Shown here piece by piece: positions 44,966 to 45,129 of a DNA stretch of 64,000 nucleotides. Position 1 is the first letter of the stretch, and each line of letters starts with the position of its first letter. Location: the NCBI RefSeq assembly GCF_003334405.1, contig NZ_QOWM01000007.1. One strand, 5' to 3'. Source of the DNA: Escherichia coli. Its GTDB lineage: Bacteria > Pseudomonadota > Gammaproteobacteria > Enterobacterales > Enterobacteriaceae. Made by a program: the position numbers and the translations under genes. The notes beneath the pieces are model-generated. The model was not told the origin of the DNA and did not search any database. It saw nothing but the letters and a program-made list of their open reading frames with translations.

Positions 44966-45129
44966 GCCTTTCCTTTTTAATCAGTTTAACGTTTTCGTAG
45001 AGCCGATTTGCGCAACGCAATCGTTGCCGTATAAGTAAATCCAATAAAAAAGTCTCTCACAAACGCGCCTATTGTCGCATTTTGGTATACGATAGCGACG
45101 GATTTTCCCTCCTTGTTCGGAAATAGATA

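Follow-up and report, generated by a model that had tools for sequence, protein, structure and literature searches.

PurR is a dimer of the LacI/GalR family. Together with its corepressor, hypoxanthine or guanine, it recognizes a 16-bp PUR box, and its hinge helices insert into the minor groove where the box has its central CpG. The autoregulatory region of purR itself reportedly contains two PurR operators, O1 and O2, as described by Rolfes and Zalkin. Oren et al. (PNAS 2014) reportedly found that intergenic (promoter) sequences are replaced horizontally among E. coli strains, which was termed 'regulatory switching'. Multiple PurR sites have been predicted for yjcD (PMC4576408 supplement), and PurR motifs are generally located between the -35 and -10 regions (PMC3159470).

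The locus described here is part of a 64,000-nucleotide stretch of DNA, which was analyzed as a whole and is called the window. MG1655 and other K-12 derivatives are 100% identical to window positions 44300-46467, and the window represents an E. coli K-12-type chromosome. A preliminary description of the same DNA had pointed to palindromic, PurR-like operator sites upstream of adeP. The annotation bore out adeP as the downstream gene and identified the divergent gene as yieH. The 164-bp intergenic region between the two genes holds both PUR-like motifs, designated box 1 and box 2. The features of the region are as follows.

44300..44965, minus strand: yieH, 6-phosphogluconate phosphatase, the divergent neighbor (open reading frame and annotation).
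44983..44998, no strand assigned: box 2, a putative, weaker PUR-like box, AGTTTAACGTTTTCGT (reverse complement ACGAAAACGTTAAACT; matrix score, supplement listing and conservation).
45008..45013, plus strand: putative weak -35 hexamer of adeP, TTGCGC, 16 bp upstream of TATAAG (relaxed scan, tentative).
45012..45027, no strand assigned: perfect 6-4-6 palindrome GCAACG-CAAT-CGTTGC, i.e. GCAACGCAATCGTTGC, which overlaps box 1 out of register in the K-12-type allele.
45015..45030, no strand assigned: PUR box 1, the PurR operator, ACGCAATCGTTGCCGT (reverse complement ACGGCAACGATTGCGT; published yieG motif, matrix score and conservation).
45030..45035, plus strand: putative -10 hexamer of adeP, TATAAG, which shares position 45030 with the end of box 1 (relaxed scan).
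45130..46467, plus strand: adeP (also yieG or purP), the regulated gene, an adenine:H+ symporter (open reading frame and RefSeq annotation of identical DNA).

Box 1 matches the PurR consensus ACGCAAACGTTTGCGT at 13 of 16 positions, and the adeP start codon follows 115 bp after the first base of the box. It forms an imperfect 16-bp palindrome with a central CpG at positions 45022-45023 and in this respect resembles the PUR boxes of purF/cvpA, purT, purC, purMN, xanP and ghxP (yjcD). PurR binding at this locus has been demonstrated in vivo: a ChIP-chip peak at yieG (3,894,397-3,895,190; log2 2.08) was observed in the presence of adenine and none in its absence (PMC3159470). The motif assigned to yieG in that study, ACGGCAACGATTGCGT at MG1655 positions 3,894,732-3,894,747 (PMC3159470), reads exactly as window positions 45015-45030 on the opposite strand. 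The peak spans approx. 800 bp, corresponding to window positions 44572-45365, and is too broad to tell box 1 from box 2. In the comparison with a purR deletion, expression of yieG changed 2.91-fold, and the gene was listed as directly repressed (PMC3159470). The same 16-mer is given as the -115 site in PMC4576408; our mapping of the MG1655 coordinates of box 1 agrees both with this position and with the MG1655 annotation.

Scoring with a PurR position weight matrix had been proposed in the preliminary description, with a low score as the outcome that would speak against PurR. A leave-one-out matrix was calculated from the 27 other published motifs (PMC3159470), leaving out the yieG site. Box 1 reached 18.6 bits, the top score among approx. 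128,000 window positions. Among the ChIP-associated motifs, which range from 11.7 to 24.9 bits, it ranked 19th of 28. The score corresponds to p = 2.9e-7 per position, so that 0.04 such matches are expected per window (iid) and 9e-5 in the intergenic region; 7% of random Markov-1 windows reached it.

Conservation was determined across about 30 genera of Enterobacteriaceae, represented by 80 orthologous adeP loci. The 16-mer of box 1 was identical in 74 of the 80 loci, and the six variants retained the CpG center and scored between 14.3 and 20 bits. In an alignment of 75 non-redundant sequences, conservation jumped from 0.11 at position 45014 to 0.93-1.00 over positions 45015-45035, an edge that coincides with the PurR register. 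A footprint or an EMSA on the adeP promoter was not found in the searchable literature.

All these results establish box 1 as the PurR operator of adeP: sequence, score and conservation come from the present analysis, adenine-dependent binding and purR-dependent expression from the literature. The main proposal of the preliminary description, PurR-type operators in front of adeP, was thus right, as box 1 matches a published, adenine-dependent ChIP-chip motif. Its reservation that adeP is not a classical member of the PurR regulon holds for the regulon as known before 2011; since then the gene has been a published member. The operator is therefore not a discovery, because adeP has been on record as a PurR target since 2011, and it is also carried in regulon resources. 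In fact, earlier publications list both motifs as PurR sites, box 1 with in vivo binding and expression data and box 2 as a computational site. Box 1 shares with the operators of the E. coli PurR regulon a score within the ChIP-associated range, adenine-dependent binding in vivo (from the literature) and a purine-related target. With 13 of 16 matches and rank 19 of 28 it is a site of medium strength, and nothing essential sets it apart from the others. Unlike the sites of xanP or purC, it needed added adenine to be bound (PMC3159470).

For the adeP promoter, a relaxed scan on the adeP strand returned weak candidates, among which the combination of TTGCGC, a 16-bp spacer and TATAAG scored among the highest (8 of 12). 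TATAAG was conserved at 0.95-1.00, TTGCGC only at 0.35-0.93 (75 non-redundant sequences). A strict sigma-70 promoter scan detected no promoter in the intergenic region, and the supplements of the genome-wide studies that were searched contained no transcriptional start site for adeP, yieG, purP or yieH, whether sought by name or by coordinates. Judged by its score and its position upstream of a conserved leader, TATAAG is the most plausible -10 hexamer of adeP. With this assignment box 1 would lie between the -35 and the -10 region, in agreement with the usual position of PurR sites, and the site itself is part of the published list (PMC3159470).

From this arrangement a simple mode of repression can be proposed. 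When purines are plentiful, the corepressor-loaded PurR dimer would bind to box 1 and shut down adeP. As box 1 fills the spacer of the putative promoter and touches its -10 hexamer, binding would block RNA polymerase, i.e. repress by occlusion. Imported adenine would be converted to hypoxanthine, which in turn would allow PurR to bind and less transporter to be made. Box 2, three helical turns away and just upstream of yieH, might act as a weak auxiliary site or in repression of yieH. The promoter position, the occlusion of adeP transcription and what box 2 might do are what we infer; for the geometry of occlusion this is so because no transcriptional start site was found, the strict scan was empty and the -35 hexamer is weak and poorly conserved. 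Taken as a whole, the explanation in which box 1 is the operator for PurR repression of adeP, likely by occlusion, and box 2 a weak auxiliary site is the best one, with a probability of about 0.9. By repressing the adenine permease gene, PurR completes a feedback loop of textbook style; the finding has little meaning beyond bookkeeping.

Between the putative -10 hexamer and the start codon, the leader contains a further, very strongly conserved block, CTATTGTCGCATTTTGGTATACGATAGCGACGGATTTTCCCTCC (45070-45112), with a mean conservation of 0.92 and many invariant columns across about 30 genera. It includes the extended -10-like string TGgTATACG and an anti-SD-like CCCTCC. A search for an RNA element in this block gave no Rfam match at E ≤ 1, and folding, with a consensus of -3.7 kcal/mol and a single-sequence z of +0.9, revealed neither a stable nor a covarying structure. 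It could function as a second promoter, as a site for a protein or as a translational element.

The second motif noticed in the preliminary description, the half-site-like AACGTTTTCG, is indeed present at positions 44988-44997 and forms the core of AGTTTAACGTTTTCGT. Relative to the start codons, box 2 is located 33 bp upstream for yieH and 147 bp upstream for adeP, and its CpG center lies at 44990-44991. It matches the consensus at 11 of 16 positions and scored 13.2 bits, the fourth-highest value in the window and at the low end of the range spanned by the ChIP-associated motifs. The score corresponds to p = 9.7e-6, with 0.003 matches expected in the intergenic region and about 1-2 per 64 kb. 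One half of box 2 is the consensus half-site ACGAAAACG, the commonest half-site among the published PurR motifs (PMC3159470), and the other half is degenerate. In the supplement of a study from 2015, ACGAAAACGTTAAACT was scored as a PurR site for yieG at 3,894,764-779, -147 relative to yieG and -33 relative to yieH (PMC4576408 supplement). The row of this computational site carries the tag "'purP' in RegPrecise regulon" (PMC4576408 supplement).

The conserved footprint at box 2 covers exactly 16 bp, 44983-44998, with a mean identity of 0.92 (75 non-redundant sequences). The flanks are unconserved, with values of 0.05-0.72 at 44980-82 and 0.03-0.60 at 44999-45001. In most orthologous loci box 2 reads AGTTTAACGTTT[A/T]CGT or a close variant, and the position scored at least 11 bits in 60 of 79 loci. 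The spacing from center to center of the two boxes is 32 bp in 56 of 79 loci and 31 bp in another 20, together 76 of 79. At 0.93-0.99, conservation of the non-consensus half AGTTTAA (44983-44989) equals that of the matching half. PurR binding alone does not account for the conservation of this half. On balance, we lean modestly towards box 2 as a PurR site over the opposite view. Most likely, box 2 would be a weak auxiliary PurR site, which might aid occupancy at the locus or extend repression to yieH. It may in addition serve transcription of yieH, through the TAAACT sequence in its conserved non-consensus half.

The strongest competing explanation, tentative but a serious one, leaves box 1 as the sole PurR operator and attributes the conservation of box 2 to another cause: it would be part of the yieH promoter or the site of another regulator, for example another LacI-family protein recognizing an AACGTT core. 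On the yieH strand the last six bases of box 2, TAAACT, form a TAnnnT hexamer that resembles a -10 region, 18 bp from the start codon. The conservation of AGTTTAA at 0.93-0.99, off the PurR consensus, speaks for such another cause. A -10 region at this position, however, leaves a leader of only 11 nt, and no acceptable -35 hexamer was found. With 13.2 bits, box 2 is comparable to intragenic matches in mnmG and rsmG that lack a ChIP peak; against this, the chance of a score of at least 13.2 bits in the intergenic region is 0.003. Expression evidence for PurR control of yieH was not found in the literature searched, and yieH is absent among the PurR-responsive genes of PMC3159470. A literature link between yieH and PurR was not found either; the one searchable paper that names both draws no connection. 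Moreover, a RamA ChIP-seq peak at the Salmonella yieG-yieH region indicates that other regulators visit this region. In favor of PurR are the footprint of box 2, which with exactly 16 bp and a central CpG is like that of PUR boxes, its good half ACGAAAACG, the commonest published PurR half-site, and its listing as a PurR site in a row tagged RegPrecise purP. Taking both sides together, a weak auxiliary PurR site is the reading of box 2 that we prefer.

An informal comparison by eye of box 2 with the operator consensus sequences of the LacI-family repressors RbsR, GalR and Cra gave no convincing match. The RamA peak of Salmonella Typhimurium at yieG-yieH contains a marbox-like motif, GCCGTCACAGTCAAA (PMC10268841). 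Its E. coli counterpart, matched by eye, lies at about window positions 44927-44943 within yieH. The locus may receive input from a stress regulator besides PurR.

A more ambitious proposal, which appears unlikely, is that both boxes form a conserved dual-operator module, in which PurR co-represses adeP and yieH or in which box 2 raises the occupancy of box 1 by PurR. The boxes are 31-32 bp apart on the same helix face, and each abuts one of the divergent genes. By way of putative box 2, yieH is a possible second target. As in purR with O1 and O2 and in yjcD, two PUR-like boxes, one strong and one weak (putative box 2), occur at one locus. Unlike in purR and yjcD, the spacing of the boxes upstream of adeP is as short as 31-32 bp and is conserved across genera, and each box lies beside one gene of a divergent pair, in the intergenic region between them. 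If true, the module would represent a cooperative or bidirectional mode of action for dimeric PurR, and yieH would join the purine regulon. We know of no description of such a mode for dimeric PurR. To our knowledge, PurR does not oligomerize beyond the dimer, and cooperation between box 1 and box 2 is therefore without a known basis. The explanation with box 1 as the operator and box 2 as a weak auxiliary site is the one retained here.

The preliminary description had placed the PurR-like site on the palindrome. GCAACGCAATCGTTGC at 45012-45027 is indeed a perfect 6-4-6 inverted repeat. The match of about 13 of 16 positions to the PurR consensus does not apply to this register, in which only 3 of 16 positions agree with ACGCAAACGTTTGCGT; it applies three bases further to the right, at 45015-45030. 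With the PurR matrix, the register 45012-45027 scored -29 bits, and on account of this score and the 3/16 match it was ruled out as a PurR site. Conservation follows the PurR box and not the palindrome, because the bases belonging to the palindrome only, 45012, 45013 and 45014, are conserved at 0.81, 0.35 and 0.11, whereas those belonging to the PurR register only, 45028-45030, are conserved at 1.00 (75 non-redundant orthologous sequences across genera).

A perfect inverted repeat in a promoter region might also be the operator of a different dimeric regulator, and we regard this as very improbable. Perfect 6-N4-6 repeats occur in the window at the rate of chance (17 observed versus 15.6 expected under an iid model or 16.9±3.9 under a first-order Markov model), and approx. 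0.5 repeats with six-base arms and spacers of 0-8 are expected per 164 bp. The left arm is poorly conserved at 45013-45014 (0.35 and 0.11), and conservation runs three bases past the right arm, to 45030. Furthermore, in about 4,020 of the 5,412 complete E. coli genomes the intergenic region is of another, divergent allele (80-90% identical), and its representative BL21 reads ATGACG-CAAT-CGTTGC, so that the palindrome is lost and the PurR 16-mer intact. The conservation pattern effectively refutes a different regulator at this site. As a significant feature, the palindrome was rejected on the basis of its chance-level frequency and its unconserved outer left arm; it is incidental, a coincidence three bases out of register with the real PurR site. 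The useful outcome of the comparison is the exact register of the operator, 45015-45030 instead of 45012-45027.

That both motifs are functionless chance resemblances can be dismissed: short AT/CG-rich palindromic motifs are common, and three comparable or weaker matrix matches exist elsewhere in the window, but the published adenine-dependent ChIP-chip peak and expression change, the p-value of 2.9e-7 and the near-invariance of box 1 across about 30 genera and two E. coli alleles 17% apart leave next to no room for it. For box 1 the chance reading is already refuted by published binding data and conservation. The preliminary description had considered chance or another regulator equally likely; for box 1 both are effectively excluded. 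Chance is at odds with the ChIP data, the p-value and the conservation of the box, and another regulator at the palindrome with the conservation pattern and the majority E. coli allele.

The matrix scan of the window returned further matches. The second-best, TCGAAAACGATCGCGT at 16494-16509 with 16.2 bits, lies inside mnmG (gidA), and the third-best, TGGTAAACGCGTGCGT at 18352-18367 with 14.0 bits, inside rsmG. Both are located next to oriC (window approx. 15764-15995) and are absent from the published ChIP peaks; they are probably non-functional. At mdtL, ChIP-chip of PurR reportedly gave a strong peak, with log2 2.08 in the presence and 1.52 in the absence of adenine and no motif given (PMC3159470). 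It corresponds to window positions approx. 49822-50759, comprising the 3′ end of tnaB, the tnaB-mdtL intergenic region and the 5′ end of mdtL. The PurR matrix detected no PUR box under this peak (window approx. 49822-50759), the best score being 4.3 bits.

E. coli has two major versions of the yieH-adeP intergenic region. Of the 5,412 complete genomes, 1,387 carried the K-12-type allele (at least 99% identical) and 4,020 the allele with 80-90% identity. We compared window positions 44960-45157 with positions 1499-1664 of the BL21 locus (L084). Of 166 intergenic positions, 29 differ between K-12 and BL21, and the coding DNA of yieH and adeP on either side is 99-100% identical. Both boxes and the -10 hexamer, 37 positions in all, contain none of these differences (hypergeometric p = 3e-4). 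The K-12 allele is as distant from the alleles of BL21, E. albertii and E. whittamii as it is from that of Citrobacter koseri (85%), and the former three are 94-98% alike among themselves. The sequence pattern suggests a localized replacement of the promoter region by recombination. As in regulatory switching, the K-12-type intergenic allele is 17% off the majority allele between flanking genes with 99-100% identity. Unlike in regulatory switching, the boxes upstream of adeP are unchanged between the alleles and the difference lies in the operator background. Because both boxes are unchanged, PurR control has probably not been rewired. Conservation and natural allele replacement in E. coli thus single out both 16-mers.

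One difference between the alleles lies within the coding region. Codon 3 of adeP (45136-45138) is ATGAGTCATCAA in K-12, encoding His, and CAA, encoding Gln, in BL21 and in all 80 other loci, including those of other E. coli. The K-12-type allele extends a few codons into adeP.
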